A DNA stretch of 46,856 nucleotides from Alphaproteobacteria bacterium (GCA_016937865.1 JAFGVS010000031.1:1-46856); one strand, 5' to 3'. Positions 2,210-46,812 are shown, numbered from the stretch's first letter. Program-made: numbers and translations. The notes: generated by a model from the letters alone, not told the origin.

Positions 2210-2236
2210 AAAAAAGAGCCCTATGACTCTTTTTTT
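2210..2236. terminator. Probable bidirectional terminator between convergent genes
   Basis: aaaaaagag...ctctttttt inverted repeat. Confidence 0.55.
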
Positions 2237-4802: not shown

Positions 4803-4901
4803 GCGGGGGATCCTAGCACAGCAATCCAAGACTGACAAATAGATTCTTGAAAATCCATACACAAAGAGATAAGCTACACAAAGAAAATAAAAAGGGACAC
4901 G

Positions 4902-10202: not shown

Positions 10203-10416
10203 AACTTTCCTTTTGGTTGTCCGTGCTTTCACGGGGTATCTGGTATAGGTGTATCCGCACCAGAAAGGTTTCTTTACAACAAAAATGCTTTTAACAAACG
10301 AGGCCATCTTAAGACATAAAACATTTTTTTTCAAGGAAAAAGGAGAAAAAGCTTTTATTGGAAGGCAAATTATGATAAAATAAGCAAGGAATAGAGAAGA
10401 AAACTTGAGGAATGAG

Positions 10417-23532: not shown

Positions 23533-24402
23533 TTATTTTGTATTTTGAACTAAGGCTGTAATATTGGCACCATTAATATCAAGATATTGTTCATTATCAA
23601 GAATTGGATCAACATTTGCTCTTAAAGAATTAAGGACAGCTGCTCTAGAAAAGACGGTTGATGCTGGATCATAGCCAGTCTGACAGTTGCCACCTGTGAA
23701 GTAAACGCCTGTTTCGTTGAATTTCAGGTCATACTCCACGTTACCGCTAGTTAGTGAAGTAAAACGTGCGGCTTCAGCAGGTTTCACAATAGTATAAGGT
23801 TGGTTATCAAAATAAGTCGTTTTATAGTATTTAATATCGCCTGCTTCTGTAAGGTCGTTAAATAACATTTGAGTCGTTGCCGGATCAGCAATCGAAACAC
23901 CGACACCTTCTGTCAGTAAAGCTTGTTCTTCTTTAGCAGAAAGAATGCTTGTGGCACGAATACCGCCTCGGAAATTATAATTATCATCTGGATTTCCAAA
24001 AGGAAGTCCTTCTGTTGATTCAACTTCTAAACTATTTAAATAAACGCGTGTTGTTGGATCTAAAATTAAAGTTCCCTTAGGGGCCGTAAAATTATTATCA
24101 AAGTTAGATTTAGGATATACCAGATCAACATCAGCCATAGATTCAGTAAGGTAGGCACCTTCTGCTGGATCAAAAGTAACAACCAAAGTGTCATTATCAG
24201 TAAAATCGACAGTGGCATTATAAACATCAGACATAACATCGCCAGGGGAAACCAATGTATTATAAACGAGTGTTGTTTTTATTGACTCATCCTCTGGTTC
24301 AGTTACTGTAAATTCCGTAAGACTACCATCTTTATTACAAGCCATAAACGTTACAGCAATCATAGATAGAAAGAAGATTAATTTGTTAGATATTTTTCGC
24401 AT
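23533..24402 (-). CDS. Hypothetical lipoprotein
   Basis: AAGGAG RBS before ATG 24402; MRKISNKLIFFLSMIAVTFMA-C lipobox; acidic, Thr-rich body. Confidence 0.8.
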   Translation of the reverse strand: MRKISNKLIFFLSMIAVTFMACNKDGSLTEFTVTEPEDESIKTTLVYNTLVSPGDVMSDVYNATVDFTDNDTLVVTFDPAEGAYLTESMADVDLVYPKSNFDNNFTAPKGTLILDPTTRVYLNSLEVESTEGLPFGNPDDNYNFRGGIRATSILSAKEEQALLTEGVGVSIADPATTQMLFNDLTEAGDIKYYKTTYFDNQPYTIVKPAEAARFTSLTSGNVEYDLKFNETGVYFTGGNCQTGYDPASTVFSRAAVLNSLRANVDPILDNEQYLDINGANITALVQNTK

Positions 24403-24764
24403 AAGATGCTCCTTTGCATTTTGCAGGGAGCGGGAGAGGGGAAAGGCAATTAGACCTCGTGCTGTCACGCTCCCTCCTTGTTTTTATAACCGAAAGATAG
24501 TCAAGAAACACCCTGAAAAAAAGTAAAGAGCGCCGTATTACAATATGTGGGTATATTTATATAGACAGGTGTACATAAGATGAAAATTATATAAGAAGAT
24601 AAATAACGTAACGAGCACGCCAAAAAAAACCATGCCAGATTCGTTAGGAAATGTAAAGAACTTTTTTAAAAAAACATAAACTTGACAAAATCTTAAATAT
24701 GATTGTATATAGGTCAATTTTTTTTGCTAGATTTTCAAAACAGGCTGCGGTAAAGTCGGTTTTT

Positions 24765-30799: not shown

Positions 30800-30806
30800 A
30801 AAAATC

Positions 30807-30835
30807 TTGCGTTTCGGTGGAAACATTTATATAGT
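30807..30835 (+). promoter_or_regulatory. sigma70-type promoter of rpmG
   Basis: TTGCGT-N17-TATAGT. Confidence 0.6.
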
Positions 30836-30874
30836 CTGCCAGCAAGAATTTGAAAAAGTATAAAAAGGGGTGTT

Positions 30875-31048
30875 ATGGCCAAAAAAGATACAATTTTCGT
30901 TCGTATGATGAACAAAGCAACCGGCATGTATTATGCGATGAAGAAAAATCCGAAATCGGAAAATACTAAAGGTAAGATGACAATGCGTAAATATGATAAA
31001 AAATTACGTAAACATGTAACTTTTACAGAAACAAAAATGCCTAAATAA
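30875..31048 (+). CDS. rpmG: 50S ribosomal protein L33, Cys-free form (absent from ORF track)
   Basis: Translates as MAKKDTIFVRMMNKATGMYYAMKKNPKSENTKGKMTMRKYDKKLRKHVTFTETKMPK. Confidence 0.92.
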   Translation: MAKKDTIFVRMMNKATGMYYAMKKNPKSENTKGKMTMRKYDKKLRKHVTFTETKMPK

Positions 31049-31075
31049 GCATAATGGTTTAAGTTTAAAAAATTC

Positions 31076-31103
31076 AAAACAACCCTTCGGGGTTGTTTTT
31101 TTT
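31076..31103 (+). terminator. Intrinsic terminator after rpmG
   Basis: aaaacaaccc-ttcg-gggttgtttt plus T run. Confidence 0.88.
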
Positions 31104-31195
31104 ATGCACAAATGTCTGTGTCTAAAAGAAAAAAGACAAATTCAGTTTTAGGTGTTCAAATATAAGTGTAGGGTTAAAAACAAAAGGAGAATATT

Positions 31196-31753
31196 ATGTT
31201 TAACATAAAATTCAAAAGGTATGTTCATCAACTTAAAGAGCTGATGTATAAAAGACCAGTAGGAGCTCAAGAGGTGGCAGAGGCCGAGAACTTAATAGAA
31301 AAGGCCGTTTTATTATCCGAAACAGGTTTTTTTTCTAAAGGAAATAAACGGTTTCTAAAAGAGCAGATGACTAAAATACTGGATTGTGGTAGAGATCATT
31401 TAAAGGCAGGCGAATTTGCAAGTGATTATCGTGCCATAAAGAGTGAGCCGGCGCTAGAATGGTATCGCTCTGCAGATCTTAAAGAGAAACTATACGAAAA
31501 AATATCGCAAAAATGGGATTGGCTTTATGACGAAGAACATCAAAAAAATCTAAATAGAGTCATGCGATTTGAAACATTCACGAATGCCCTTTTTGTAAAA
31601 ACACAACACGGCGAAAATCCTTATCAAGAAGAGATAGATGAAGTCCGAGGTATAAAGCGCGTAGAAGATCCAAAAATCTTAAGAGTAGATTTTAAAAGAA
31701 GAAAAGAATCACCTATTTTAGAAGAAGCAATTCTTTTGAGGCAGCGTGGATAA
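31196..31753 (+). CDS. Hypothetical protein
   Basis: AAGGAG RBS, 185-aa charged ORF, own terminator; no motif recognised. Confidence 0.7.
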   Translation: MFNIKFKRYVHQLKELMYKRPVGAQEVAEAENLIEKAVLLSETGFFSKGNKRFLKEQMTKILDCGRDHLKAGEFASDYRAIKSEPALEWYRSADLKEKLYEKISQKWDWLYDEEHQKNLNRVMRFETFTNALFVKTQHGENPYQEEIDEVRGIKRVEDPKILRVDFKRRKESPILEEAILLRQRG

Positions 31754-31760
31754 GTCATAT

Positions 31761-31792
31761 AAAAAACACCTCTTAAGTGGGGTGTTTTTTTT
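31761..31792 (+). terminator. Intrinsic terminator
   Basis: aaaaaacacctc...ggggtgtttttt hairpin with T run. Confidence 0.8.
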
Positions 31793-31817
31793 ATTTTGAA
31801 AAAGATTCAATTTATAC

Positions 31818-31846
31818 TTGACTCTCGTGAAAAAATTCTTTATAAT
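31818..31846 (+). promoter_or_regulatory. Near-consensus sigma70 promoter upstream of the capsid cluster
   Basis: TTGACT (31818-23)-N17-TATAAT (31841-46). Confidence 0.75.
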
Positions 31847-32195
31847 AGAGTCTTGTAAAAGGGGCCGTTGTGCCTTTTTTTTATTTTTAAAACGGATAAC
31901 AGGTCATCTGCTCCACTTTAAAATCGAGCCTTTAAACGATGAACACGCTTTTATAGCGTGTTTTTTTCTCTTTAAAACAAGCCAAATGAAATTCAAATAA
32001 TTTAACAATAAAAACGTCAAGCAATAAAAAAAGTGAAATCAAAGTGGCTTTGCCACGGTCATGTTTAAAAGATATTTTTATTTCCAGTATCGCGTACCGC
32101 AGCGTACATATTGTACGTGAGGACACACAGATCACGCCGTAAAATAGATTTAAACAGAATTGGTTTCCAATAGGAACAGAAAGGAACTAATAAAA

Positions 32196-33017
32196 ATGTC
32201 TACATCTATAGACCAAGCTTTTATCAAGCAATTCGAAGTCGATGTCCATTTGGCTTATCAACAAAAAGGGACAAAACTACGTGCGACCGTGCGTTCTAAA
32301 ACAGATATCACGGGAATTTCCACGACTTTTCAAAAAGTCGGAAAAGGAATCGCATCAACAAAATCGCGACACGGTATGGTACCTGTAATGAACCTAGACC
32401 ACACACCTGTGGAATGCGCATTAGAAGATTTCTATGCCGGCGATTGGGTAGATGCATTAGACGAGCTTAAAACAAACGTTGATGAACGTTTTGTTGTGGC
32501 GTCTGCTGGTGCGTATGCTTTGGGACGTAAAACAGATGAGCTAATTGTAAACAAGTTGGGATCTGCAACATCTGCAATCGCGCACGCAACATCTGGTTTA
32601 ACCAAAGATAAAATCATGAATGCGGTGGAAATGCTAAACAGCAATGACGCCCCAGATGATGGTCAAAGATTCGGCATCATCGGTGTAAAACAATGGAGCG
32701 ATTTATTAAATATCCAAGAATTTTCCAGCGCAGATTATGTGGGGGAAAATTATCCATGGCTATCTGGTTCTGAAACACGGAAATGGATGGGCGTGATTTG
32801 GATTTTACATAATGGATTACCGGTAAACACAAACATTCGCGATTGTTTCTTGTATCACAAAAGTGCGATCGGACACGCCGTCGGCAGTGAAGTTCTAACA
32901 GACATTTCATGGCACGGCGAACGTGCTGCACACTTTATTTCAAACCGCATGAGCCAAGGGTCATGCCTGATTGAAGAAAATGGTGTTGTAAAGATCGAAT
33001 GCGATGAAGCTGCGTAA
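32196..33017 (+). CDS. Phage major capsid protein (podovirus type)
   Basis: MSTSIDQAFIKQF...KLRATVR...AGAYALGRKTDELI...RFGIIG; AAGGA RBS before ATG 32196. Confidence 0.88.
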   Translation: MSTSIDQAFIKQFEVDVHLAYQQKGTKLRATVRSKTDITGISTTFQKVGKGIASTKSRHGMVPVMNLDHTPVECALEDFYAGDWVDALDELKTNVDERFVVASAGAYALGRKTDELIVNKLGSATSAIAHATSGLTKDKIMNAVEMLNSNDAPDDGQRFGIIGVKQWSDLLNIQEFSSADYVGENYPWLSGSETRKWMGVIWILHNGLPVNTNIRDCFLYHKSAIGHAVGSEVLTDISWHGERAAHFISNRMSQGSCLIEENGVVKIECDEAA

Positions 33018-33040
33018 ACTGTTTGAGCAACTACTCCCAC

Positions 33041-33074
33041 AAATCCTCCTTGTCCTTGCACGGGGGATTTTTTT
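33041..33074 (+). terminator. Terminator after capsid gene
   Basis: aaatcctcc...gggggattt stem followed by T run. Confidence 0.7.
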
Positions 33075-33155
33075 ACGAAAGAAATAAGAAGTAAAAAAAC
33101 TCTATAGACGAAACGAGAGGATTACTTTCTCATAAAATAAAAAAGGAAAGATAAT

Positions 33156-33395
33156 ATGAAACAAGAAAATTTAAGTGTATTGGCCTACGCCAATGGCTTT
33201 ACATTATGGCATTATAAAGATACGGATACATTGCTAAATGTAACCGCATCTACATTTTTCGTGCCGGTGTATAACATTTTAAATGTTGGCGATATGATTA
33301 TGATTAATGCAGGCGCAGGGGCATCGGAAACAGCCGTTGCGTTTGTAAGTGCTCTCAGCAATTCAAGTGTGACACTCAGCACAATGACCCAATAA
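33156..33395 (+). CDS. Small capsid-adjacent protein (possible head decoration protein)
   Basis: RBS, LSVLAYANGFTLWHY...GDMIMIN, position after capsid gene. Confidence 0.65.
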   Translation: MKQENLSVLAYANGFTLWHYKDTDTLLNVTASTFFVPVYNILNVGDMIMINAGAGASETAVAFVSALSNSSVTLSTMTQ

Positions 33396-33404
33396 AAGGG
33401 AACC

Positions 33405-33429
33405 AAATCCCCGCTTTTGCGGGGATTTT
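33405..33429 (+). terminator. Intrinsic terminator
   Basis: aaatccccgc-tttt-gcggggattt. Confidence 0.8.
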
Positions 33430-33456
33430 ATATATAGAACTATAAAAGGATTTTAA

Positions 33457-34026
33457 ATGGCTTTTTCATCACTCGATTTGTGCTCTCAAGCGCTTCTTAA
33501 AATAGGGGCATCTCCAATACATTCTTTCGAAGCCAAAACCGCAGAATCTAAAATCGCGAGCGCACTCTATGAATCCATAAAGCAAAATATGCTGTCTTGC
33601 TTTCCATGGACATTTGCAATTAAGACAGAGCGATTGGCAAAGTTGGCAACAGATCCAAAAGCGGATTTTGCCTATGCTTTCCAATTGCCAAACGATTGCT
33701 TGCGTGTGCTATCTGCGGGCGTAAACAAAAAATCAACAGGTCTCGATTATCAAATAAAGGCCACGCAACTCTTAACGACAGCAGACGATATTTATATCAC
33801 GTATCTAACGGATATTCCTGAAACAGATTTTCCGCCCTTCTTTCGACAAGCATTGGTTTCACGGTTGGCCAGTGAGTTTTGTTTGCCTCTCACGGAAAAT
33901 ACAACGCTGGCGACATTCTTATTAAAACAAGCGGAAGTCGATGAAAAAAAATCCCGCGTTATTGATTCACAACAAGAAACCCCACGTGCAATTTTAAACT
34001 TCCCCATGATTGATATAAGGGGATAA
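33457..34026 (+). CDS. Tail tubular protein A / adaptor (T7 gp11-like)
   Basis: LCSQALLKIGASPI, PWTFA, AFQLPNDCLRV, FPPFFRQALVSRLA. Confidence 0.8.
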   Translation: MAFSSLDLCSQALLKIGASPIHSFEAKTAESKIASALYESIKQNMLSCFPWTFAIKTERLAKLATDPKADFAYAFQLPNDCLRVLSAGVNKKSTGLDYQIKATQLLTTADDIYITYLTDIPETDFPPFFRQALVSRLASEFCLPLTENTTLATFLLKQAEVDEKKSRVIDSQQETPRAILNFPMIDIRG

Positions 34027-34049
34027 AAAGACCGCAGAAAGAAAGCAAT

Positions 34050-34072
34050 GCTCTCATTTGGGGGGCTTTTTT
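34050..34072 (+). terminator. Possible terminator
   Basis: gctctc-attt-gggggc (with G-U pairs) plus T7. Confidence 0.55.
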
Positions 34073-34098
34073 AATAGCAAAAATCAAAGGAGAAAAAT

Positions 34099-34554
34099 AT
34101 GGGTGCATCAAACGTTGGTACGTTTGTCGACAGTACGATTGGTATGGTCGAAGGCTACCAAAATCGAAAACAGGAAAAAAAAGAAATCCAAGCACGATTA
34201 GACGCCGAACGTCAAAAAATCGCGCTGGAAAAAAAGAAAGAATATGTCCAAAAATCACAATATGACACCGAGCAGAGAAATCTATTAAAACGGGCTCTGG
34301 CCACACAACGGTCTCGGTATGGGGCTGGGGGAACAGCAGGGAAATCTTTTTCGGCCAAATCGGTACTCAAACGTTTGGATGGGGATGCAAAACGAAATCT
34401 AGAAAATTATAAAGAACTCAGTGATCTTCGATTAGAAAAATTAAACAACAATTTATCCGATGCAGAAACAAATGCGCTACTGGATAAAAAGAGATCAAAA
34501 TTAAATCAGCAGGTTAAATTGGCCAAATCTGGGCGAAAATTATTAGGGAATTAA
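34099..34554 (+). CDS. Probable internal virion protein (T7 gp14-like)
   Basis: Coiled-coil character with QRSRYGAGG...SAKSVL motif; context. Confidence 0.55.
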   Translation: MGASNVGTFVDSTIGMVEGYQNRKQEKKEIQARLDAERQKIALEKKKEYVQKSQYDTEQRNLLKRALATQRSRYGAGGTAGKSFSAKSVLKRLDGDAKRNLENYKELSDLRLEKLNNNLSDAETNALLDKKRSKLNQQVKLAKSGRKLLGN

Positions 34555-34565
34555 AAGGGGGAAAA

Positions 34566-35267
34566 ATGCTAAAAGTCATATACACAACAGATGGAATTCA
34601 AAAAGAGTTTCCATTTCCACATCGTATTTTCAAAGATGAAAATTTAACCGTTTTTTTAGAGGAAATACAAATGATGACGGGTTTTGTAATCGAAAACGAA
34701 GACAGCCTAAGTGGCGCTAACGTGGTCTTTAATGTCGCCCCGGAATCAGGAAAAGAATTAACCCTGATGCGTCAAATGCAGATAAAGCGAACTTCCGATT
34801 TTCAACCACAAAACCCACTTGATCTAACCATTTTAAATGTCGAATTAGATTATCAAATTGAAACGCTAAAAGATATTTCCGCACAATTGAGCAAGACGGT
34901 TTCACAAGGATTAATCAGTAATGAGTTGCTGAATTTAACGCTACCAGTGCCCGAAGCAGGAAAAGCATTGTTGTGGTCGCCAACGGCAGATTCCTTGGTG
35001 AATTCCGAAATTAATATCAGTCAAACCATTTTAGATTTAGAAACCGACATCGCAGAAATGGAAAGGCTAAATAATGATATTCGCGCATATCTGGAAATAT
35101 CTGGAGATGCCGGAATTTTAGGAATTGTGAATAATTTAATTGGTTTAATGGCTTCATATCATGTCGATGCTTTTATTACTTTCGGTCATATTTCAGACAG
35201 TCCAGATGAAAATCCCGCCTATGGTCTGATTACAGAAAGTGCAGGAGAAACGATTGATTACACTTAA
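34566..35267 (+). CDS. Short tail-fibre protein (T7 gp17 N-terminal adaptor-like domain)
   Basis: YTTDGIQKEFPFP...VVFNVAP...TLMR...RTSDF...LNVELD; LPVPEAGKALLW. Confidence 0.75.
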   Translation: MLKVIYTTDGIQKEFPFPHRIFKDENLTVFLEEIQMMTGFVIENEDSLSGANVVFNVAPESGKELTLMRQMQIKRTSDFQPQNPLDLTILNVELDYQIETLKDISAQLSKTVSQGLISNELLNLTLPVPEAGKALLWSPTADSLVNSEINISQTILDLETDIAEMERLNNDIRAYLEISGDAGILGIVNNLIGLMASYHVDAFITFGHISDSPDENPAYGLITESAGETIDYT

Positions 35268-35865
35268 TCATCGTAAAAAAGGTTTTTTGACATTTATAAA
35301 ACTATGGAATGATCTTTCAAGGTTCAAAACGCCACAACATCACAATCAAATCGGTGTTTGGTTAGAACAAATTTATCATGGATTGGATCGAAAAGGGCTA
35401 TTGCTAGCGTTTCGCAATAGTGGAAAATCAACCGTTGTAGCTCTATTTTGTGCATGGATTTTATATCAAAATCCAAACGATAGAATTCTGGTTGTTTCGG
35501 CAGACGCGCGTCTGGCTACGAAAATATCACGGCATATTCGACGCATCATAGAACATCATCCATTGACGGAAAAACTTGTGCCAAAGAAAAAAGAAGAGTG
35601 GGCAGGCTGTGCTTTTTCGATTGAAAGGTCTCAAAAACAACGCGACCCATCTGTAACGGCCTTTGGGATTACCAGCGGGATTACAGGCGCACGTGCAGAT
35701 GTGATTATTTGTGATGATGTCGAAATTCCAAAAAACTGTAACACGGAAGAAAAGCGGGAAGATCTCCGCGAGAGATTAGTCGAATTAGAATTTATTTTGT
35801 CACCCAATGGCATGCAAATTTTTATCGGTACGCCACACACATATGAAACTATTTATCAATCGTAA
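35254..35865 (+). CDS. Large terminase, ATPase domain only
   Basis: Walker A FRNSGKST, ITGARADVIICDDVE (Walker B), IGTP coupling motif, then TAA; AGGAG RBS before TTG 35254. Confidence 0.85.
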   Translation: MITLNHRKKGFLTFIKLWNDLSRFKTPQHHNQIGVWLEQIYHGLDRKGLLLAFRNSGKSTVVALFCAWILYQNPNDRILVVSADARLATKISRHIRRIIEHHPLTEKLVPKKKEEWAGCAFSIERSQKQRDPSVTAFGITSGITGARADVIICDDVEIPKNCNTEEKREDLRERLVELEFILSPNGMQIFIGTPHTYETIYQS

Positions 35866-35878
35866 AAAGGAAAATAGA

Positions 35879-37315
35879 ATGAATAAAGAAGAATTGTTAA
35901 AAAAATTTGAAAAAGCGAAAGCAACACGACGTCCTTGGGAAAGTATCTGGGAAGAATGTTATCATTATGGATTGCCGCATGGGTCAGCCTTTCACGAAAA
36001 TCAAAAGATAAAATCAGATTTATTTGATTCAACGGCCAGCGATGGGGTAGAACAACTGGCAACAAATTTATTGTCTGAAATGACGCCACCATGGGGGGAC
36101 TGGTTTTCAATCCAATCAAATAAAGAAGAAATGAAAGAGGTGCTAGAGAAAAGCGAAAAAGTTCTAAAAAAACATTTAGAGCGATCAAACTTTTCGGTCG
36201 AAATGCATCAATGTTATTTAGACCTTGTCGCCATTGGAAGCGCTTGTCTATTAGTAGAAGAAGCCCCAATAGGCCTGTCTTCTGCTTTTCGATTTAAGGC
36301 GATCCCGATGCGGAATATGTTTGTTTTGGAAAATGCAACAGGGCGACCAGATACTGTTTTTAATACGGTTATATTCTCGAGCGAAGAATTTTTAAAACGC
36401 TGGCCGAATAGCATATTGGATGAGCAATCAAGACGGGATTTATCCAAAAACAAAGAAAATAAAATCGCGGTACTCGAATGTATTTATCCTATTTTTGAAA
36501 AAGGACAAATCAAAGGATATCGTTATTTGGGCTGTCCGATATCTGGTGTCAAATTATCTAAGGACACAGAATTTATTTTCGATAAAACATTGGCAACAAA
36601 TCCGTTTATGGTCTTTCGATGGATGAAAACAGCCGGGGAAACATACGGTCGATCACCGGTGATGAAAGCCTTGCCAGATATTAAAACAGCCAATATGGTG
36701 GTGGAGCTTATTTTAAAAAATGCCAACCTCGCGATCAGCGGCGTTTGGATGGCGGATGACGACGGGGTGTTAAATACAGAAAATCTGTCGTTAAAACCAG
36801 GCACAATTATCCCCAAAGCGGTCGGATCACAAGGGTTAACACCACTGCAAACGGCCACAGATTTTAATGTATCCGACCTGGTGTTAAATGATTTGCGTGC
36901 GTCGATCCGCAGAAATTTGATGATGGATAAATTATCACAGTTCCAAACAAAAACACCCATGACCGCAACCGAAGTTATTGAAAGATCCGGGGAAACACAA
37001 CGCGTGTTGGGGGCGATTTATGGACGTCTTCACGGGGAGTTATTAACTCCTCTTTTGATGCGTTTGGCGGATATTTTGCAACGCCGGGGAGAAATTCCAT
37101 TGCTTGATTTAAAAGGGGTTGTTAGTCATCCAGTGTATCGTTCCGGTTTAAATAAATTACGTAAAAAAGAAGAGCTACAAAATATAATGGAAGGTTTGAA
37201 TATTTTAAAAATGTTAAATATTGGTCCAGAAAATATTTTGAATACCGAAAAGACTTTGGCGTTTCTAGTGGATAAATTAGATTTGCCATCGTCTATTTTA
37301 AAGATAGAGGAATAA
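35879..37315 (+). CDS. Portal / head-to-tail connector (T7 gp8-like)
   Basis: WESIWEECY, FDSTA, RWMKTAGETYGRSP, ALPDIKTAN, MTATEV; AAAGG RBS before ATG 35879. Confidence 0.92.
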   Translation: MNKEELLKKFEKAKATRRPWESIWEECYHYGLPHGSAFHENQKIKSDLFDSTASDGVEQLATNLLSEMTPPWGDWFSIQSNKEEMKEVLEKSEKVLKKHLERSNFSVEMHQCYLDLVAIGSACLLVEEAPIGLSSAFRFKAIPMRNMFVLENATGRPDTVFNTVIFSSEEFLKRWPNSILDEQSRRDLSKNKENKIAVLECIYPIFEKGQIKGYRYLGCPISGVKLSKDTEFIFDKTLATNPFMVFRWMKTAGETYGRSPVMKALPDIKTANMVVELILKNANLAISGVWMADDDGVLNTENLSLKPGTIIPKAVGSQGLTPLQTATDFNVSDLVLNDLRASIRRNLMMDKLSQFQTKTPMTATEVIERSGETQRVLGAIYGRLHGELLTPLLMRLADILQRRGEIPLLDLKGVVSHPVYRSGLNKLRKKEELQNIMEGLNILKMLNIGPENILNTEKTLAFLVDKLDLPSSILKIEE

Positions 37316-37316
37316 G

Positions 37317-37520
37317 ATGTTTGATCGAAATAAGGAGGCGCACGATTTCGTGCGCTGTTTCAATACGCCTGCCGGGCGAAAAGTTTTGTCTTATTTGCGT
37401 GGTATGACGGTTGAAAAAGCGATGGGGCCGGAAACACCGGCTCCGACATTGTATTATCGGGAAGGTCAAAAAGCCTTGGTCAAACATATTGAACATATGA
37501 TTGAAAAAGGACAGAAGTGA
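37317..37520 (+). CDS. Bbp19-like small protein
   Basis: FNTPAGRKVLSYL...YREGQKALVKHI; directly after portal. Confidence 0.7.
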   Translation: MFDRNKEAHDFVRCFNTPAGRKVLSYLRGMTVEKAMGPETPAPTLYYREGQKALVKHIEHMIEKGQK

Positions 37521-37535
37521 AAAAGAAGAAATAAA

Positions 37536-37823
37536 ATGACAGAAATACCTTTATCCTGGTGGATCCAGGTTGTTGAAATCCCCGCATTAGCGGGGCTTTT
37601 TTTATGGACAAAATCTATCCGTTCACAAGCCGAAACACAACACGAACATCTACGCGAAACCTTGGAAGATCGTATTGAAAAGACGCGGGAGGTTTTGGCA
37701 ACGCATAAAGTCGAAGTGGCACAAAAATATGCCTCTATTTCCTATATTCGGGATGTCGAAAAAAGATTAACGGATCATTTGATTCGCATAGAAGAGAAGT
37801 TAGAAGGAAGGAAAAGAAAATGA
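37536..37823 (+). CDS. Membrane-anchored coiled-coil phage protein
   Basis: N-terminal hydrophobic WWIQVVEIPALAGLFLW, then coiled coil ending RIEEKLE. Confidence 0.65.
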   Translation: MTEIPLSWWIQVVEIPALAGLFLWTKSIRSQAETQHEHLRETLEDRIEKTREVLATHKVEVAQKYASISYIRDVEKRLTDHLIRIEEKLEGRKRK

Positions 37824-38224
37824 TTCAAGATATTCAAAACGATAGAGCCAGTGCACAATATTTTACGGCAATCACACTGTATCATGAAGGATATGGCTAT
37901 AATTTAAAAGAGTTAGAAGCCATCGGATCTGTGATTAAAAATAGATTTGACTTTTATAGAAATATCAAACAAAAAAAGACGTGGGAGCAAGTGTGTTCCG
38001 ATGCCACAATTTTTAAATTTTGGAAGACAGATGATTGTATTGAAAGTCCAATTATCACAGATGCTTTTTTTGCCATGTGCTCCCGTGTAGCGGGGCGTGC
38101 TATTTCTGGAGTTCTAACAGATATAACCAATGGCGCTTTGCGTTATCACCATTGCACGGATATGCCGCATTGGGCACGTGGAAAAACAGGGCTGGAAATC
38201 GGTGATTTTATTTTCTATGATTAG
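37820..38224 (+). CDS. Cell-wall hydrolase (SleB/Hydrolase_2-like)
   Basis: AITLYHE...AIGSVIKNR...DITNGALRYH...PHWA...IGDFIFY. Confidence 0.8.
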   Translation: MIQDIQNDRASAQYFTAITLYHEGYGYNLKELEAIGSVIKNRFDFYRNIKQKKTWEQVCSDATIFKFWKTDDCIESPIITDAFFAMCSRVAGRAISGVLTDITNGALRYHHCTDMPHWARGKTGLEIGDFIFYD

Positions 38225-38259
38225 GCGATAATGTATTAAAATTAAAAAAGGAGTTATAA

Positions 38260-38787
38260 ATGAAGATTCTAAAAACAATTTTGGACGCTCTGAAAAAAGG
38301 ACTGTCTTCGCTAAAAGCCCTTGTTTCCAAAAACACGGCTCCTCCCAAAAAAACATCAACACCACTCAAACCCATTTTACAAATTCGCGGGCAAGATGCT
38401 TCTGGATCTGGAGCGTTTGGAGCCCCCAGAAAACGAAAAGACGGCTCTCGCTATAAACATCAAGGGATTGATATTAAGTCCAATCCCGGACAAAAAATTC
38501 GGGCGTTGAGCGATGGTATTTTTTTACGAAAAGTAGACCCATATGGGGATGGTAAATTTTCCGGTATGGTAATTAAAGATGCAGCGGGAAATGAACAAAA
38601 AATCTTTTATATTAACACGATCAAAAAAGTCGGAGATGTTCTTGAAAAAGGGCAAATTATGGCGATCGCGCAAGATGTTGCGGATGGGCGGGACATGACA
38701 AACCATTATCATTTTGAGGTTCGAGATAAAAACAAAAAACTCTTGGATCCGAATGATTATCTAAAAAAAGACTATAAATTAGTCTAA
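38260..38787 (+). CDS. M23-family metallopeptidase
   Basis: HQGID (HxxxD) and HYHFEVR (HxH) zinc motifs, LDP near C-terminus. Confidence 0.87.
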   Translation: MKILKTILDALKKGLSSLKALVSKNTAPPKKTSTPLKPILQIRGQDASGSGAFGAPRKRKDGSRYKHQGIDIKSNPGQKIRALSDGIFLRKVDPYGDGKFSGMVIKDAAGNEQKIFYINTIKKVGDVLEKGQIMAIAQDVADGRDMTNHYHFEVRDKNKKLLDPNDYLKKDYKLV

Positions 38788-38804
38788 ATCCTAAACGGAA
38801 GTAC

Positions 38805-38829
38805 AACGGCGCGAAAGCGCCGTTTTTTT
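38805..38829 (+). terminator. Intrinsic terminator
   Basis: aacggcgc-gaaa-gcgccgtt plus T run. Confidence 0.85.
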
Positions 38830-38851
38830 GATTCAAAAAAAGGAGAAGTGA

Positions 38852-40699
38852 ATGCCAAAACAAACCTATACGCAAACCTCATTTTCACACGGAATGGTAT
38901 CGCTGCCCATTTTTGTGCGCAGTGATTTAGAGGCCCAAAGCAATGGCCTAATGACATTGGAAAATGCCTATGTAACACCAACCGGAGGCATAAAAAGACG
39001 GGAAGGGACACGTTTTATTGATACGCTTTTGGGGAAATCTCGCCTGATTAATTTCGGCGCGGCAAAACAAGAAGTTTTGGTTGTTTTAAGTAATCTAAAA
39101 ATAGCCATTTATGAAGAAGATGTTAAGGTTTTTGAGGCGACTTCGCCATGGCGCGAAAACGAAATTCAACACGTGCAATGGACGCAAAATGTAGACACAT
39201 TATTTTTAGTACATCCTGATTTTGCACCGAAGAAGCTCAGGAAGGCAAAAAATGTTTGGCAGTTTCAAAATTGGATATTTCAAACAAATATAGACGGATT
39301 AACCTTAGATCCTTTTTATAAATTTGATGATACGGAAGGCGTGTTGCTAACGCCACTTGGAACCAGTGGCACATTCATTGTAAACGTGTCAACACAGTAC
39401 TTTTCAGAAGAACATATTGGTCTAAAAATACGTCTGAACGACGGTGAGATGATTATAACGCAAGTTATTGATGACAGCAGCATTCAAGTGCAAAGTAGCA
39501 AGGATTTAATCTCCTTGGATCAAAGCAGCGATTGGATTGAATCGTGCTTTTCAGATCAGCGGGGCTGGCCGATTTCGATTTCTTTTCATCAAAATCGTCT
39601 GGTTGTTGGAGGTTCTAAATCCTTGCCACATAAAGTATGGATGTCAAAAACAGGGGATTTTTTCAACTTTGATTTTGGGGAAGGTTTGGATGATGAAGCC
39701 ATTACATTCAGTCTGCTCTCAGATCAGCGCGAACATATTTCAAGTGTGTTTTCAGGAACACATTTGCAAGTTTTAACCGCCCAATCGGAATGGATGGTCG
39801 GCGGTGAACCCTTAACACCCGCAACAATAAACGTAAAGAAACAAACGACCATCGGATCTCATTTGGACCGATATTTGCCACCTCAAAACGTAGAAGGGGC
39901 AACCATCTTTATTGCAAAAAACGGAAAAGAAATCCGTGAATTTATTTATGGTGAGGTTGAAAAAACGTATCAGTCCTATGACTTAGCATTGCTGGCAGGA
40001 CATCTCATGGAAACACCTGTGGATCAAACCTATAATGACGAAAACCGTAAATTATATGTTGTTATGGAAACCGGAAACATGGCGGTCTTGGTATTGAATA
40101 AAAGTGTCGGGGTTGCCGGCTGGAGTGTGTATAAAACACAAGGTAATTTTCAATCAATTGCGATTGTAAATGGGCAAACATATATCAGTGTCGCGCGGGC
40201 AACTGGGGTGTTTTTGGAAAAATTTGATGAAAGAGTGCACTTAGATTCAAGTATTTCCACCAAAGACGCAAATGTGGTTATCTTGCCACACTTAAATAAT
40301 CAAAACAGTGGATGGACAGGGGATGATTTTCGCTCTGGTGAAGATGTGGTTCAAGACAATAATTTAGGCTTGCCAGAAATCATGGAAACAACGGATGCAG
40401 GCTTAAATTATACCCACGTTATCGAACCGCTGCCAATTTTAAATCTAAATGGGGAAGTGGCAAAAAAATGGCGCCTAATTGAGTTGCGTTTAAGTCTGAA
40501 AAAATCTCATTTGTTAGAGCTTAGCATGCAAGATGAAACACACACAGTTCAGTTGGATGAGGACGTGTTTACAGGCAGCTATCGTTTGAAAGCGTTGGGA
40601 TATATTGAAGATCTAACGACATCTTTGTGGAAGATTGAAAGTAACAAACCGTATGCCTTTGAATTCTTGGGATATACCGCATTTATCAAAACCATATAA
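38852..40699 (+). CDS. Tail tubular protein B / nozzle (T7 gp12-like)
   Basis: QTSFSHG...GGIKRREGT, TQNVDTLFLVHP, GWPISISFHQNRL, WMSKTGDFFNF. Confidence 0.83.
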   Translation: MPKQTYTQTSFSHGMVSLPIFVRSDLEAQSNGLMTLENAYVTPTGGIKRREGTRFIDTLLGKSRLINFGAAKQEVLVVLSNLKIAIYEEDVKVFEATSPWRENEIQHVQWTQNVDTLFLVHPDFAPKKLRKAKNVWQFQNWIFQTNIDGLTLDPFYKFDDTEGVLLTPLGTSGTFIVNVSTQYFSEEHIGLKIRLNDGEMIITQVIDDSSIQVQSSKDLISLDQSSDWIESCFSDQRGWPISISFHQNRLVVGGSKSLPHKVWMSKTGDFFNFDFGEGLDDEAITFSLLSDQREHISSVFSGTHLQVLTAQSEWMVGGEPLTPATINVKKQTTIGSHLDRYLPPQNVEGATIFIAKNGKEIREFIYGEVEKTYQSYDLALLAGHLMETPVDQTYNDENRKLYVVMETGNMAVLVLNKSVGVAGWSVYKTQGNFQSIAIVNGQTYISVARATGVFLEKFDERVHLDSSISTKDANVVILPHLNNQNSGWTGDDFRSGEDVVQDNNLGLPEIMETTDAGLNYTHVIEPLPILNLNGEVAKKWRLIELRLSLKKSHLLELSMQDETHTVQLDEDVFTGSYRLKALGYIEDLTTSLWKIESNKPYAFEFLGYTAFIKTI

Positions 40700-40718
40700 C
40701 AAAAAAAAGGAGAAAAAA

Positions 40719-40910
40719 ATGGAAAAAATTATTAACGGGGGCCTTTTAAAAGGCAAAAAAACATACATCACAACCACACTTGGATTGCTGTCTGCGTTAG
40801 GCGCCTATCTGATTGGAGAAATGGATCTCGCGGGCTTTTTACAAACCGTATTTCCGCTCGTTGGGATACTATTTTTACGCAAAGGAATCGCAGATCAATC
40901 ACAAAAATAA
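40719..40910 (+). CDS. Small two-TM holin-like protein
   Basis: AAGGAG RBS before ATG 40719; LKGKKTYI...TM...TM...FLRKGI. Confidence 0.65.
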   Translation: MEKIINGGLLKGKKTYITTTLGLLSALGAYLIGEMDLAGFLQTVFPLVGILFLRKGIADQSQK

Positions 40911-40922
40911 AAGGATACATAA

Positions 40923-41616
40923 ATGACTGAAAGACCAGAGTTCTTACCTGAAAAGTTTTGGGATATGGAAAAAAAATGCGCCTCGTTTAGAAGCGATGAG
41001 TAAATCATACAAAGAATTGGAAAAGCGTTTTTCTCAAACACATCAGTTTTCAAAAGAAAATTTAAATGATGAAGAAAAAAAACAAATCTTAAAAATGTTG
41101 GGACATCCCGAAGCGCCCTCTGCGTATGAGGATGTCTTGGCTGATAAATTCCAAATCGATTCAGAGGCGAATGAAAAGTTGCATGCGGTCGGGTTAACAC
41201 CGGAACAAGTCCAAGTTGTGTATGAATTGGCGAATGAACGTCTGATGCCACAATTAGAAGAGGCCGAAAAAAACACAGAAAGTATGCAACAAAACTTATT
41301 GTTAAAAGATTATTTTGGATCAGAAACGGCGGTTGAATCGGTGGCGAAACAAGTGCTCGCTTATGCCGAAAATAATTTTTCACCAGATGTCGCCGAAGAA
41401 CTCTGTCAAAGCGCCAAAGGGGTGATTGGGATCTATGAAATGATGCAATCGAATAAAGAGCCCGGAATTTTGGCCGGAAAAGGCGAAGATATGGAAAACC
41501 TCTCTGACCAGTCACTCCGTAAAATGATGCAAGACCCGAAATATTGGCGTGAACAAGATCCTGAATTTGTTAAAAAAGTCAAAATTGGTTTTGAAAAGCT
41601 ATACGGCGAAAAATAA
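40923..41616 (+). CDS. Capsid assembly/scaffolding protein, split by a +1 frameshift at A8 (40969-40976)
   Basis: RBS plus MTERPEFLPEKFWDMEK in one frame; continues NAPRLEAMSKSYKELEKRF...GLTPEQ...DPKYW in the +1 frame. Confidence 0.78.
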
Positions 41617-41619
41617 ATA

Positions 41620-41648
41620 AAAAAAACGCCTCCACGGAGGCGTTTTTC
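41620..41648. terminator. Bidirectional terminator closing the cluster
   Basis: aaaaacgcctcc-ac-ggaggcgttttt. Confidence 0.85.
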
Positions 41649-41663
41649 TTTTGAAATCAAATC

Positions 41664-42098
41664 TTATCTATACCGCATCGCACGAAATTCTTCACGCGTC
41701 ACTTTGCCATCACTATTTAAATCCAAAGAATCGAAATGATCCTGTGCCATTTCTTCAGCACATACCATAAATTCTTCCTTAGACACGATACCGTCGTTGT
41801 TTGTATCTTTTTTTGAAAAACGTTTTATTTTTTTTTCTACATTGCAGCCGAGCGTTTGGGTCTCACACTTTAAAAACTCAAATTTTGAAAGTTGTTCATC
41901 TTTGTTTTTATCTTTATTTTCAAAGCTTTTCGCTTTTTTTCCCAAGTCACACTCAGAGTTCTTTCCCAGACGAAACTCTTCCAAAGTAACGACATCATCT
42001 CTATTTTTGTCATATTTGTGAAAGAATCCCCCTTTGGCATCCGCTGTTCCGGCAGATAGAATAAAGGCCATTCCAAATAAGATAGATAATAAACGCAT
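41664..42098 (-). CDS. Secreted EF-hand protein
   Basis: GGAG RBS, signal peptide ending ADA, four loops DKNRDDVVTLEEF, DKNKDEQLSKFEF, DTNNDGIVSKEEF, DLNSDGKVTREEF. Confidence 0.88.
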   Translation of the reverse strand: MRLLSILFGMAFILSAGTADAKGGFFHKYDKNRDDVVTLEEFRLGKNSECDLGKKAKSFENKDKNKDEQLSKFEFLKCETQTLGCNVEKKIKRFSKKDTNNDGIVSKEEFMVCAEEMAQDHFDSLDLNSDGKVTREEFRAMRYR

Positions 42099-42174
42099 TT
42101 TAACGTCTCCGTTGTCTTGAGTGAATGCCACAAGTATAGCGAATTTTAGACAAAGGGGCAAACAAATAAAAAGC

Positions 42175-42203
42175 TTGAAATCCTTGAGCGTTTTATTTAT
42201 GCT
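42175..42203 (+). promoter_or_regulatory. sigma70-type promoter of rpmF-plsX-fabH
   Basis: TTGAAA-N17-TATGCT. Confidence 0.55.
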
Positions 42204-42235
42204 ACGCGGGCAATAAATTAAATAGGAGTCTAACA

Positions 42236-42400
42236 ATGGCAGTTCCAAAAAAGAGAACATCTGCATCAAAACGTGATATGCGTCGCTCGCATCATGCGCT
42301 AAAGCCAGAAGCAATGAGCACATGTAAAGCATGTGGTGAAGCAATGTTACCACATCATGTTTGCCCAGCGTGTGGCGAACGTCCAAAGGCGAAAAAATAA
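42236..42400 (+). CDS. rpmF: 50S ribosomal protein L32 (absent from ORF track)
   Basis: Translates as [54 protein letters not shown]; AGGAG RBS; upstream of plsX. Confidence 0.96.
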
Positions 42401-42415
42401 CGAAAAGGACAGATA

Positions 42416-43438
42416 TTGTCTACCATTCTCGCAGTCGATTGCATGGGAGGGGATAAAGCACCCAAAGCGGTGTTTGACGGCCTCAGTTTAGTTTGTCGTG
42501 AGCGAGGAGATGTTATTTTTCATCTGTTTGGAAAAGAACGTGTTTTACAAAAACATCTAAAGCGCCACCCGTATCTCGCGGGGCGCTCTCTTATTTTTCA
42601 TAGCCCAGGGATCATCAAAGGAACGGATAAAGCCCGTGATGCGATTCGAAATGGTCAAAAATCCAGTCTCTACATGGCAATTGATCATGTGAAACGTGGC
42701 GAAGCCCATGCGATTCTGTCTGCCGGTAATACAGGTGCTTTTATGGGAATGGCAAAGCTTGGATTTCGAACGATATCCTCTATTATGCGTCCGGCCATTG
42801 TCAGTATTCTGCCAACACAAAATGGGCGAACCGTGATGTTGGATTTAGGCGCAAATTCTGAATGTAACGAGGATCATTTATTTCAATTTGGGGTTATGGG
42901 GGCTTTATACGCTCAATTAATGCTGGACAAAAAACGTCCAACGGTTGGCTTGTTAAATATTGGGGAAGAACACACCAAAGGAAATGATGTGTTGCGCAAT
43001 ACATATCAAAAAATGACAACACTTAAAAACGCACCGTTCAAATTTCATGGATTCGTCGAAGGAAATGATATTTTGCTTGGCACAACGGATGTTGTTGTGA
43101 CAGATGGCTTTACGGGTAATGTCGCGTTGAAAACCGCAGAAGGAACGGCAAAGTTCCTAGGTGATTTGATCAAAAGAGTCTTTAAAGATTCATTTTGGGG
43201 TAAAGTGGCCTATTTCCTTGTAAAAGGCGGATTAAAAATTCTCAAGAGTCGAATGGATCCACGTGAATATAGTGGGGCTGTTTTTATCGGATTAAATGGG
43301 ATTGCGGTAAAAACGCACGGGTCTTCGGATAAAGTTGCATTTGCGCGTGGAGCAGAATATGCTATAAGTATTGTTGAAAAAGATCTTAACAAAAAAATTA
43401 AGAAACAAATTGAAAAAATAAATAAAGGAAAAATATGA
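42416..43438 (+). CDS. plsX: Phosphate acyltransferase
   Basis: AVDCMGGD, SAGNTGA, LDLGAN, LLNIGEE, DGFTGNVALK, KTHGS. Confidence 0.96.
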   Translation: MSTILAVDCMGGDKAPKAVFDGLSLVCRERGDVIFHLFGKERVLQKHLKRHPYLAGRSLIFHSPGIIKGTDKARDAIRNGQKSSLYMAIDHVKRGEAHAILSAGNTGAFMGMAKLGFRTISSIMRPAIVSILPTQNGRTVMLDLGANSECNEDHLFQFGVMGALYAQLMLDKKRPTVGLLNIGEEHTKGNDVLRNTYQKMTTLKNAPFKFHGFVEGNDILLGTTDVVVTDGFTGNVALKTAEGTAKFLGDLIKRVFKDSFWGKVAYFLVKGGLKILKSRMDPREYSGAVFIGLNGIAVKTHGSSDKVAFARGAEYAISIVEKDLNKKIKKQIEKINKGKI

Positions 43439-46299: not shown

Positions 46300-46812
46300 A
46301 TGAAAAAATTATTACCTATACTCGGGTTACTATTTTCTTCTAATTCAATGGCCGCAATCGGAACAGGACATGCTCAAGCAGAGCTCACAAAACCACTTTC
46401 TATCACATTTGTAAGAAACGTAAATTTTGGGACAATTTCAATTGATCCATCTGCTGGGCCTCAAACAATTCCAATAACAATGTATGGTACTGTTACGTGT
46501 CCGCTAACATATGTGTGTGCGGGAAGTCCAATCGGTGGGTTAATGTATTTTTATGGATCTCCGAACATTCCTATTTCTGTCAGTATTTCTGGTGAAACAG
46601 CAACTCTTACAGATGGGAATGGTAACTCAATTATTTTTGATCCAAGCTTTGGAAGTGGCGATACACACAATACTACGTTAGATAATGTAGGATATCGGGC
46701 ACTCATTATGGGAGGGGAAATCAGTTTTACCGGAAATGAGTCTGAAGGAGTATATTCATCCACAAATGCGAGAGGTGGTCCCAAAAATTCGGACAGTGTG
46801 TTAAGCTACTAA
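46300..46812 (+). CDS. DUF4402-like fimbrial-type protein, paralog 2; C-terminus probably replaced by an insertion
   Basis: Shares GTGHAQAEL, IDPSAG, ATL.DG.GN, GGEI.FTGNE with 1689..2207; similarity ends near YSSTNA (46770). Confidence 0.7.
   Translation: MKKLLPILGLLFSSNSMAAIGTGHAQAELTKPLSITFVRNVNFGTISIDPSAGPQTIPITMYGTVTCPLTYVCAGSPIGGLMYFYGSPNIPISVSISGETATLTDGNGNSIIFDPSFGSGDTHNTTLDNVGYRALIMGGEISFTGNESEGVYSSTNARGGPKNSDSVLSY

Follow-up and report, generated by a model that had tools for sequence, protein, structure and literature searches.

Why does a strongly reduced bacterial genome keep a set of podovirus head and tail genes among its housekeeping genes? The question is raised by JAFGVS010000031.1:1-46856 of an Alphaproteobacteria bacterium (GCA_016937865.1), a stretch of 46,856 nucleotides that is called the window here. 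Fourteen co-oriented, intact genes at 32196-41616 (+) form a T7-like head, tail and lysis module in a host genome of 852 kb (67 contigs, 99.9% complete). We propose, with a probability of about 0.72, that this cluster is an anciently domesticated, vertically inherited T7-like podovirus virion module, a viriform of the gene transfer agent (GTA) kind by architecture and history that has been kept by selection in a strongly reduced genome. The cluster is not a decaying prophage; it co-diverges with its host order under purifying selection. It is probably one member of an unrecognized podovirus-type family of domesticated virus-like particles, and the window copy is a derived form: its genes have changed order, its regulators lie elsewhere, and of its terminase only the ATPase piece was found.

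Open reading frame (ORF) calls and searches of Pfam and PHROGs recovered the 14 virion-type genes where a first-pass annotation of the window had placed them. That annotation had described T7-type podovirus proteins rather than the siphovirus set of the Rhodobacter capsulatus GTA (RcGTA), and the family matches (PF12236, PF19821, PF17212, and PF05396, with neither PF04860 nor PF05065) agreed. Its names held for the capsid, tail tubes A and B, portal, hydrolase, M23 peptidase, scaffold, and Bbp19-like protein; the gp14-like match is weak, the fiber match covers the N-terminal part only, and the terminase match covers the ATPase part only. The labels 'decoration-like' and 'holin-like' had no basis beyond size, position and a transmembrane helix, and the capsid start was corrected to ATG 32196. 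Ribosome-binding sites had been called clear for most genes; Shine–Dalgarno-like motifs were found upstream of 10 of the 14 genes. The genes are as follows.

32196-33017, +, major capsid protein, 273 aa (PF19821, E 9e-76; phrog_3437), its ATG set by the copy in a congener
33156-33395, +, conserved 79-aa gene 3' of the capsid gene (phrog_18004, no assigned function), syntenic in relatives
33457-34026, +, tail tubular protein A, T7 gp11-like (PF17212; phrog_394, E 7e-46)
34099-34554, +, small internal-virion-protein-like gene, weakly gp14-like (PF24072, E 0.0027, under the cut-off)
34566-35267, +, short tail fiber (phrog_1640/2710, residues 4-100), fiber-like in the N-terminal adaptor of ~100 aa only
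35239-35865, +, large terminase, ATPase piece only, 208 aa (phrog_38 positions 269-458 of 760), likely start TTG 35254 after AGGAG
35807-37315, +, portal, T7 gp8-like (PF12236, E 1e-100), likely start ATG 35879
37317-37520, +, Bbp19-like small protein (PF25181, E 6e-12)
37536-37823, +, 95-aa membrane protein, conserved partner of the hydrolase (phrog_29007)
37820-38224, +, cell-wall hydrolase, Hydrolase_2 (PF07486)
38260-38787, +, M23 peptidase (PF01551)
38852-40699, +, tail tubular protein B or nozzle, T7 gp12-like (phrog_376, E 7e-100), displaced from its usual site after tube A
40719-40910, +, 63-aa membrane protein, possible holin (transmembrane segment only), conserved ahead of the scaffold gene in relatives
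40996-41616, +, scaffolding protein, T7 gp9-like (PF05396, E 7e-8)

The orthologue of the gp14-like gene in a relative matches the internal virion protein phrog_418 (E 3e-5), and an assembly from a second sample spans the terminase–portal junction with 0 differences. Each cluster protein matches this locus only within the genome. The reported absence of an integrase, repressor, replication genes, tRNA genes and attachment (att) repeats holds for the window, in which the only att-like direct repeats were ribosome-binding site, terminator and low-complexity look-alikes and PolA (2235-4862) is an 875-aa host-type DNA polymerase I with a 5'-3' exonuclease; a repressor remnant lies on another contig of the genome. 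None of the three tyrosine recombinases of the genome is on the cluster contig. A tailocin was rejected because capsid, portal and scaffold genes are in the cluster, and an encapsulin-like compartment because portal and tail genes are.

The same module is widespread in the reduced-genome order of the host, for which 41 genomes, all of 0.5-1.1 Mb, were sampled and 35 cluster loci were fetched for gene order. A portal gene was found in 36 of the 41 genomes (32 of the 34 of high quality) with 40-48% identity to that of the window, as one strong copy per genome; G038 has an extra match at 24%. In comparisons with order relatives, identity is 52-70% for the window capsid and 38-48% for the portal, vs 42-58% for PlsX, and these chromosomal copies are nearer to each other than to any phage record. 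In the congener G001 (72% complete), a 3-kb contig carries a capsid gene with 86% and a next gene with 70% identity. HK97-type capsids (PF05065) were found in none of the 41 genomes, and the relatives carry structural-only clusters, not full prophages.

The usual gene sequence in the 35 loci is transmembrane protein, hydrolase, small transmembrane protein, scaffold, capsid, 79-aa gene, tube A, tube B, gp14-like gene, fiber and terminase ATPase, followed further on by the portal and then by Bbp19. The window order is a circular permutation of this arrangement with tube B displaced and the M23 gene added. A counterpart of the M23 peptidase was found in 0/35 same-order loci and 1/80 named loci from elsewhere, and the gene is a lineage-specific addition; a homologue of the cell-wall hydrolase adjoins the cluster in 29/41 order genomes. 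Essential host genes lie inside the clusters of several relatives: ftsZ in families f2, f3, and f6, where one locus was checked and has both the Tubulin and the FtsZ_C domain, and DnaB plus a double helix-turn-helix (HTH) gene between the two terminase pieces in family f5.

L024 7539-9221, ftsZ, between terminase ATPase and portal
L019 11447-13003, DnaB region

Phylogenetic analysis pointed to vertical inheritance. In the portal tree, the 36 rows of the order fall on one side of a branch and the 27 other alphaproteobacterial rows on the other (SH-aLRT 98.8), and the monophyly of f5 has a support of 100. The labels require 7 changes on this tree, against a minimum of 6 and a mean of 31.4 after shuffling; a 116-row FastTree and a capsid tree agree. 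The portal of the window is nearest to family f6, and its PlsX is 57-58% identical to that of f6 vs 42-49% for four other families. Moreover, the cluster has the composition of its host, with a GC content of 0.400 vs 0.404 for the genome, matching GC at third codon positions, and a codon-usage distance within that of random gene sets, 24.7% of which are equally far.

Ratios of nonsynonymous to synonymous substitution (dN/dS), calculated by NG86, were 0.05-0.16 in genus g6 (13 loci) and 0.13-0.46 in genus g4 (10 loci), with 0.24 for ftsZ in the same loci; these ratios are rough because dS was 1-1.8, near saturation. Between the window and G001, dN was 0.09 for the capsid, where synonymous sites are saturated, 0.23 for the 79-aa gene and 0.14 for PlsX. 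The tests that the first-pass annotation had proposed, namely single-copy presence in relatives, trees that follow taxonomy, low dN/dS, a lack of replication genes and host-like composition, gave the results it expected. It had held that its reading would fail if close relatives lacked the cluster or carried it within a complete prophage, or if dN/dS was near 1. The congener has the capsid gene, the clusters of relatives are structural-only, and dN/dS is well under 1; G002, of the same family, gave neither capsid nor portal.

The module was also traced beyond the order. A single-protein query of genome contigs found no relative, whereas an alignment query did: a scan with the portal alignment, one genome per species, gave at least 569 relatives, of which the best 80 were examined as named loci. 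These 80 are 41-47% identical and nearly all labeled Alphaproteobacteria, including Azospirillum, (Para)magnetospirillum, Tagaea, Terasakiella, Roseospira, Ferrovibrio, Micavibrio, and gut metagenome-assembled genomes (MAGs); three MAG labels among them are non-proteobacterial. The named relatives are in T7 order (portal, Bbp19, scaffold, capsid, 79-aa gene, tube A, tube B, in some gp14 and fiber, phrog_31793, terminase, transmembrane protein, hydrolase), and in some the terminase block stands ahead of the portal. In the 6.5-Mb genome G088, the portal matched in two halves ~17 kb apart (C2:1262476-1263357 and 1280215-1280778), as if interrupted by an insertion.

In a class sample of 401 genomes, where a strong portal was defined as at least 520 bits (a cut that we set at a gap in the scores), the portal was found at E ≤ 1e-20 in 105 genomes and at ≥520 bits in 50, once each, with seven more at 386-462 bits. 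Its distribution follows genera in a free-living family of 61 genomes (3.2-8.5 Mb), with the portal present in 10/10, 9/9, 6/6, 2/2, 2/2, and 5/8 genomes vs 0/10, 0/2, and 0/2; the copies are single and their scores nearly constant within a genus. The 8 kb upstream of the cluster align at 0.44-0.93 in 9 of 12 within-genus pairs and at 0-0.14 in three. In addition, IMG/VR holds at least 587 related regions that are filed as viral genomes or proviruses, and regions of this kind appear there as 'viruses' of 4-44 kb; among the best 80 of these contigs, 73 are under 20 kb. Many of the predicted proviruses start exactly at a repressor gene. Around five long records, no integrase lay within 100 kb in two, a XerC/D-like match was 22 kb off in one, an integrase was ~8-9 kb off in another, and one was ambiguous. 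Capsid and portal genes are separated by ~335 kb in one genome and ~916 kb in another, provided that the locus lies on contig C1.

Throughout the order, the large terminase is two genes, ATPase and nuclease, whereas in other Alphaproteobacteria it is a single ORF of 493-506 aa. The ATPase ORF has 193-218 aa in 11/11 order loci checked for ORFs and ends at the same point, GTPHTxxTIY, in all six families, with invariant Walker motifs (alignment A4); a nuclease ORF was found in 34/35 same-order loci. Three families have the two ORFs side by side, whereas 3.3 kb separate them in f5 and the portal stands between them in f3. Positions of the two pieces in relatives (alignment A4) are as follows.

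L024 5277-5885 and 10786-11682, terminase pieces
L019 14775-15377 and 10600-11448, terminase pieces

Purifying selection acts on both pieces in relatives (dN/dS 0.10-0.18), and because of this the relatives most likely fill their heads with DNA. In the window, Walker A (GKS) and Walker B (DDxE) of the ATPase piece are intact. Five terminase queries in this genome matched the ATPase part only and no nuclease domain, and two small conserved genes were not found in this genome either.

The start of the cluster had been set at 31818 as a host-type promoter, and this position is the -35 box of the best plus-strand sigma-70-like match. The flanking and control features are as follows.

31761-31790, +, terminator-like hairpin ending the upstream unknown gene
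31818-31846, +, sigma-70-like promoter, TTGACT-17-TATAAT (11/12, best plus-strand match in 30800-42500), a pattern match only
31857-31963, +, leader between promoter and capsid gene, containing two terminator-like hairpins that end in T-runs (31857-31880 and 31941-31963)
41619-41650, both strands, bidirectional terminator-like hairpin ending the cluster
41664-42386, -, EF-hand calcium-binding gene flanking the cluster, before rpmF

The neighbors are in the order rpmG (30875-31048), the unknown gene (31196-31753), the cluster, the EF-hand gene and rpmF (42236-42400), in agreement with the claim that the cluster lies between rpmG and rpmF with one unrelated gene on each side. The rest of the window is housekeeping (malic enzyme, Pol I, trigger factor, serine hydroxymethyltransferase, folD, plsX, and fabH). 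The listed TTG start of the EF-hand gene overlaps rpmF on the opposite strand; a signal-peptide-like start is present at ~42098, and the real gene probably has ~144 aa.

Terminator-like sites are enriched in the cluster region (33 vs 11.0 ± 3.9 in shuffles), and the leader hairpins may be a target of antitermination. The 343-nt leader showed no unusual stability against shuffles (z -0.59), no Rfam family came close to its gathering score in 30800-42500, a simple pattern scan gave no promoter of ≥11/12 ahead of the operon in three relatives, and the one RNA run of the same study had no match to this stretch.

Candidate regulators were found on contig C50 of the host genome, where c2 (an 87-aa HTH protein) is divergent from c17 (133 aa) and c5 (123 aa). 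This trio is not linked to the structural genes here, whereas it heads the cluster in other Alphaproteobacteria and in IMG/VR loci; of the best 80 IMG/VR contigs, 68 carry c5, 50 carry c17, and 33 carry c2, and the sequence c2(-), c17, c5, portal is invariable. In the order, c17 is single-copy in 37/41 genomes, usually tens to hundreds of kb off the structural genes, with c5 beside it plus an HTH-only c2 of 76-105 aa. Outside the order, c2 is an HTH plus Peptidase_S24 repressor, divergent and upstream of c17 and c5, with S24 over the Pfam cut-off in 5/7 tested (best E 4e-25). Judged by sequence, c2 of the host order is a remnant of a CI/LexA-like repressor that has lost its S24 domain; with this autocleavage domain gone, DNA-damage induction is probably gone as well.

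Neither c5 nor c17 had a Pfam, NCBIfam or PDB-sequence match, and the 178 homologues of c5 are all unnamed or labeled hypothetical. Two residues of c5 are invariant, a His within a strand and a Cys where a helix begins, and they suggest a Cys/His hydrolase-like protein. Permuted papain-like and NlpC/P60-type hydrolases, with which c5 was compared, have a His on a strand followed by a Cys at a helix N-terminus in a small alpha+beta fold. A possible assignment of c17 is a Q/AlpA-like antiterminator, predicted from middling fold scores below the levels reliable for helical proteins and with no sequence similarity. The logic of lambdoid phages and of AlpR–AlpA is of this type: the repressor and antiterminator genes diverge, and hairpins follow a strong promoter. 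The first-pass annotation had proposed a vertically inherited, host-controlled particle; the inheritance was borne out, while the control genes look like retained phage-type regulators that are now unlinked.

Several observations weigh against the reading of a vertically inherited, selected module. A query with the nuclease of the nearest family had no match in this genome, in G001 or in G002 (80% complete), and the same query recovered its target in two other families. The phrog_31793 gene, which precedes the terminase elsewhere and is a small terminase by position only, was not found in this genome. Neither capsid nor portal was found in G002, in both g10 genomes (G012 and G015) or in G028; therefore, the system can be lost. 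G040 differs in gene order and is misplaced on a long branch, a Terasakiella portal falls within the Magnetospirillum portals, and two genomes hold second, more distant capsid copies; the nested portal and the extra capsids show that related elements do move. An integrase lies ~8-9 kb from one named locus, and the saturation of dS blunts the selection estimates. The terminator-like hairpins before the operon in 3/3 relatives may just be terminators of the upstream genes. 

The cluster has several marks of a viriform: chromosomal, phage-derived virion genes amid housekeeping genes, no self-propagation module, and vertical inheritance with purifying selection. A complete packaging machinery of terminase ATPase plus nuclease was not found. 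With the nuclease piece and phrog_31793 not found, a classical headful GTA mechanism is doubtful here, and this weakens the reading as a GTA in this genome, not the reading as a domesticated particle.

A first alternative is a working GTA in this organism, whose particles carry host DNA to kin for uptake via ComEC, DprA, and RecA. RcGTA likely needs the ComEC and DprA of the recipient, and ComEC, DprA, and RecA have all been kept in this 852-kb genome. The head, tail and lysis set is full, the lack of gp15/gp16-size proteins fits delivery to the periplasm, and the selection on both terminase pieces in relatives points the same way. Furthermore, the ATPase piece, with its invariant Walker motifs, is 56% identical to a full-length relative, as conserved as in nuclease-keeping lineages (47-62%). 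Set against these points are the nuclease and phrog_31793 genes not found in the genome. GTAs package random host DNA in pieces shorter than their own coding cluster, which here is only ~9.5 kb. We consider a working GTA here unlikely.

A second alternative is a domesticated particle with a role other than transfer, either DNA-free or a killer particle, for which PBSX-like or bacteriocin-like particles are models, or a structure for interaction with a partner cell. The capsid is strongly constrained in the genus though the nuclease was not found, and acquisition of the additional M23 peptidase is confined to this lineage. The same idea was raised for RcGTA head genes in endosymbionts, in the accessible part of George et al. 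(2022; PMC9254644). The intact packaging ATPase argues against it, being needless for a DNA-free particle. In addition, we know of no T7-type killer particle. Such a role is quite unlikely as matters stand.

An inert prophage remnant that has yet to decay would account for the rearrangement relative to the canonical order, for the missing half of the terminase and for the relatives that lack the system. It is very improbable and has been largely refuted by conservation across six families of 0.5-1.1 Mb genomes, dN/dS of 0.05-0.46, a capsid that evolves more slowly than PlsX, 14 intact ORFs and a fully ameliorated composition. That the cluster belongs to a still-propagating mobile element, a temperate phage or a satellite with a helper, is scarcely credible. 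In its favor are the at least 587 related regions classed as viral in IMG/VR, the CI/LexA-type repressor at the head of the cluster in free-living relatives and the integrase near one named locus. Against it, neither an integrase nor replication genes, att repeats or tRNA genes were found in the window, nearly all of the best IMG/VR contigs are short, copies in the 61-genome family are single and present by genus with upstream flanks that mostly align, and capsid and portal lie far apart in two genomes.

Under the preferred reading of a domesticated module, a phage-type circuit on contig C50 (the c2 remnant, c17, and c5) would control the promoter at 31818, and transcription would then read through the leader hairpins. 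T7-like particles would assemble in a subpopulation of cells and be released via the transmembrane protein, the hydrolase and the M23 peptidase. In most relatives, the two-piece terminase would fill the heads with DNA. This DNA would reach the periplasm only, because a gp14-like protein is present but ejection proteins of gp15/gp16 size are absent, and might then enter via ComEC, DprA, and RecA, the route used in RcGTA transfer. In this genome, packaging may be impaired, another nuclease may be used or the particle may have shifted to another role.

A wider reading joins these parts, and we offer it tentatively, at rather less than even odds. There would be an ancient, so far unrecognized second alphaproteobacterial GTA-like lineage of podovirus (T7) type that descended vertically from free-living Azospirillum-, Magnetospirillum-, and Tagaea-type bacteria to genomes of less than 1 Mb. 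It would be controlled by a CI/LexA-like repressor and a Q/AlpA-like antiterminator and distributed, in our sample, in a pattern complementary to the RcGTA tail marker. Its terminase would have become two-piece in the reduced order, and the nuclease would have been dropped in the lineage of the window, suggesting a changed cargo or role.

If true, this would be a second, independently domesticated and far-reaching virion lineage in Alphaproteobacteria, of a different morphotype, in the group where GTAs are best understood. Hundreds of database 'viruses' and 'proviruses' would be flagged as probable host elements, and culturable carriers with the S24 repressor (Azospirillum- and Magnetospirillum-type) permit direct tests of particles and cargo. 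For the biology of genome reduction, it raises the question of why genomes of 0.7-1.1 Mb devote ~1% of their length to the head and tail of a phage. The stable one-point terminase split, plus a derivative without the nuclease, is a natural experiment on packaging motors.

Other features of the host genome and its occurrence were recorded. A family of ~170-aa DUF4402 proteins is strongly expanded for a genome of 852 kb, with ~30 full-length copies on ~19 contigs by tblastn, eight of them on contig C18 and two in the window (46300-46812 and 1689-2207). A 2705-aa ORF (15352-23469, +) has no Pfam family at E ≤ 0.001, and the adjoining ORFs of 702 aa (10405-12513) and 311 aa (23533-24468) are equally unnamed, a very large set for so small a genome. 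DNA with ≥99% identity to window positions 31000-42500 was found in freshwater and sediment metagenomes of one study, and fragments spanning 38327-42049 in a hot-spring metagenome of another.

Among known systems, the nearest cultured phages are Pelagibacter phage EXVC031P Hodr and HTVC010P-type pelagiphages. The head–tail module of Hodr is collinear, with identities of 35% for the portal, 47% for the capsid, 33% for tube A and 32% for tube B, plus scaffold, Bbp19-like and hydrolase genes. In contrast, the Hodr genome has 34 kb, and 7 of 42 tested coding sequences have homologues in the window. Its early genes and a 501-aa gene beside the portal had no homologue here, and the two proteins of 783 and 1247 aa that follow its gp14-position gene had none in the host genome or in the loci of six relatives. 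With T7-like or Autographivirales-type phages in general, the cluster shares the T7-type portal, scaffold, capsid and tubes A and B, and its named relatives share the canonical order; unlike them, it has no polymerase or replication genes of its own, no gp15/gp16 core proteins and no one-piece terminase. Phage satellites such as phage-inducible chromosomal islands (PICIs) and capsid-forming PICIs differ in having an integrase, a replication initiator and att sites, none of which was found in the window.

AlpR/AlpA and PrtR/PrtN are circuits of a LexA-like repressor plus an antiterminator or activator that control domesticated lysis or pyocin cassettes. The free-living members of the family resemble them in having an HTH plus S24 repressor divergent from a small protein. 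They are unlike in that no sequence similarity was found and fold scores were below reliable levels, and in the host order the S24 domain is lost and the trio unlinked.

A large family of domesticated T7-like virion clusters is apparently undescribed: searches of full-text literature, with supplements and subscription journals beyond their reach, gave no description of this podovirus-type family. In the accessible part of a paper on a reduced-genome alphaproteobacterial order, not necessarily that of the window, the words phage, capsid and gene transfer were absent (PMC12306168). A 2012 Azospirillum paper, as far as its text was available, describes particles that appear after mitomycin treatment and contain random pieces of host DNA of 10 kb; the genes behind them were a guess, and the paper is a lead, not a link (PMC3899980).

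BaGTA of Bartonella, as described in the accessible part of its report (PMC3610622), is likewise alphaproteobacterial, genus-wide and phage-derived, with capsid, portal and terminase. By that description, it differs in occurring in one genus only, in its 1863-nt portal and 1344-nt terminase genes, and in being coupled to run-off replication. Bartonella records were absent from the best 80 of the at least 569 portal relatives. FpGTA of Faecalibacterium, termed the first podovirus-like GTA-like element in a 2026 paper, is by the available portion of that paper also GTA-like, probably podovirus-like and spread over separate loci (PMC12946183). The wording of that paper suggests that its authors were unaware of the family described here. 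It belongs to a Firmicute host and is set beside the window cluster by description only (PMC12946183).

Endosymbionts with genomes under ~1 Mb carry reduced RcGTA head and portal clusters under purifying selection, according to the accessible part of George et al. (2022; PMC9254644). The same portion reports head-only RcGTA sets, which the GTA_TIM marker misses, in some Rhodospirillales (PMC9254644). As there described, the endosymbiont clusters resemble the one studied here in having the terminase apart from the main cluster and an unclear function; they are mostly tailless, whereas the window cluster keeps its tails, is T7-like and has a terminase split within the gene (PMC9254644).

The fullest comparison is with RcGTA itself. 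The family markers of RcGTA (capsid PF05065, portal PF04860, and GTA_TIM) were not found in the window cluster, nor were PF04860 and PF05065 found in this genome. In the class sample, the 50 genomes with a strong portal and the 34 with GTA_TIM share none, a contrast inflated by kinship, and one of the 105 portal-positive genomes (with a 196-bit portal) has GTA_TIM. RcGTA-type GTAs of Rhodobacter capsulatus and Caulobacter are, like the cluster described here, chromosomal, structural-only, phage-derived clusters with lysis genes and with regulators elsewhere, and RcGTA likewise co-diverges with its host under purifying selection. The two differ in descent: RcGTA has an HK97-type siphovirus set, whereas the window cluster is a T7-like podovirus module (PF12236, PF19821, PF17212, and PF05396).

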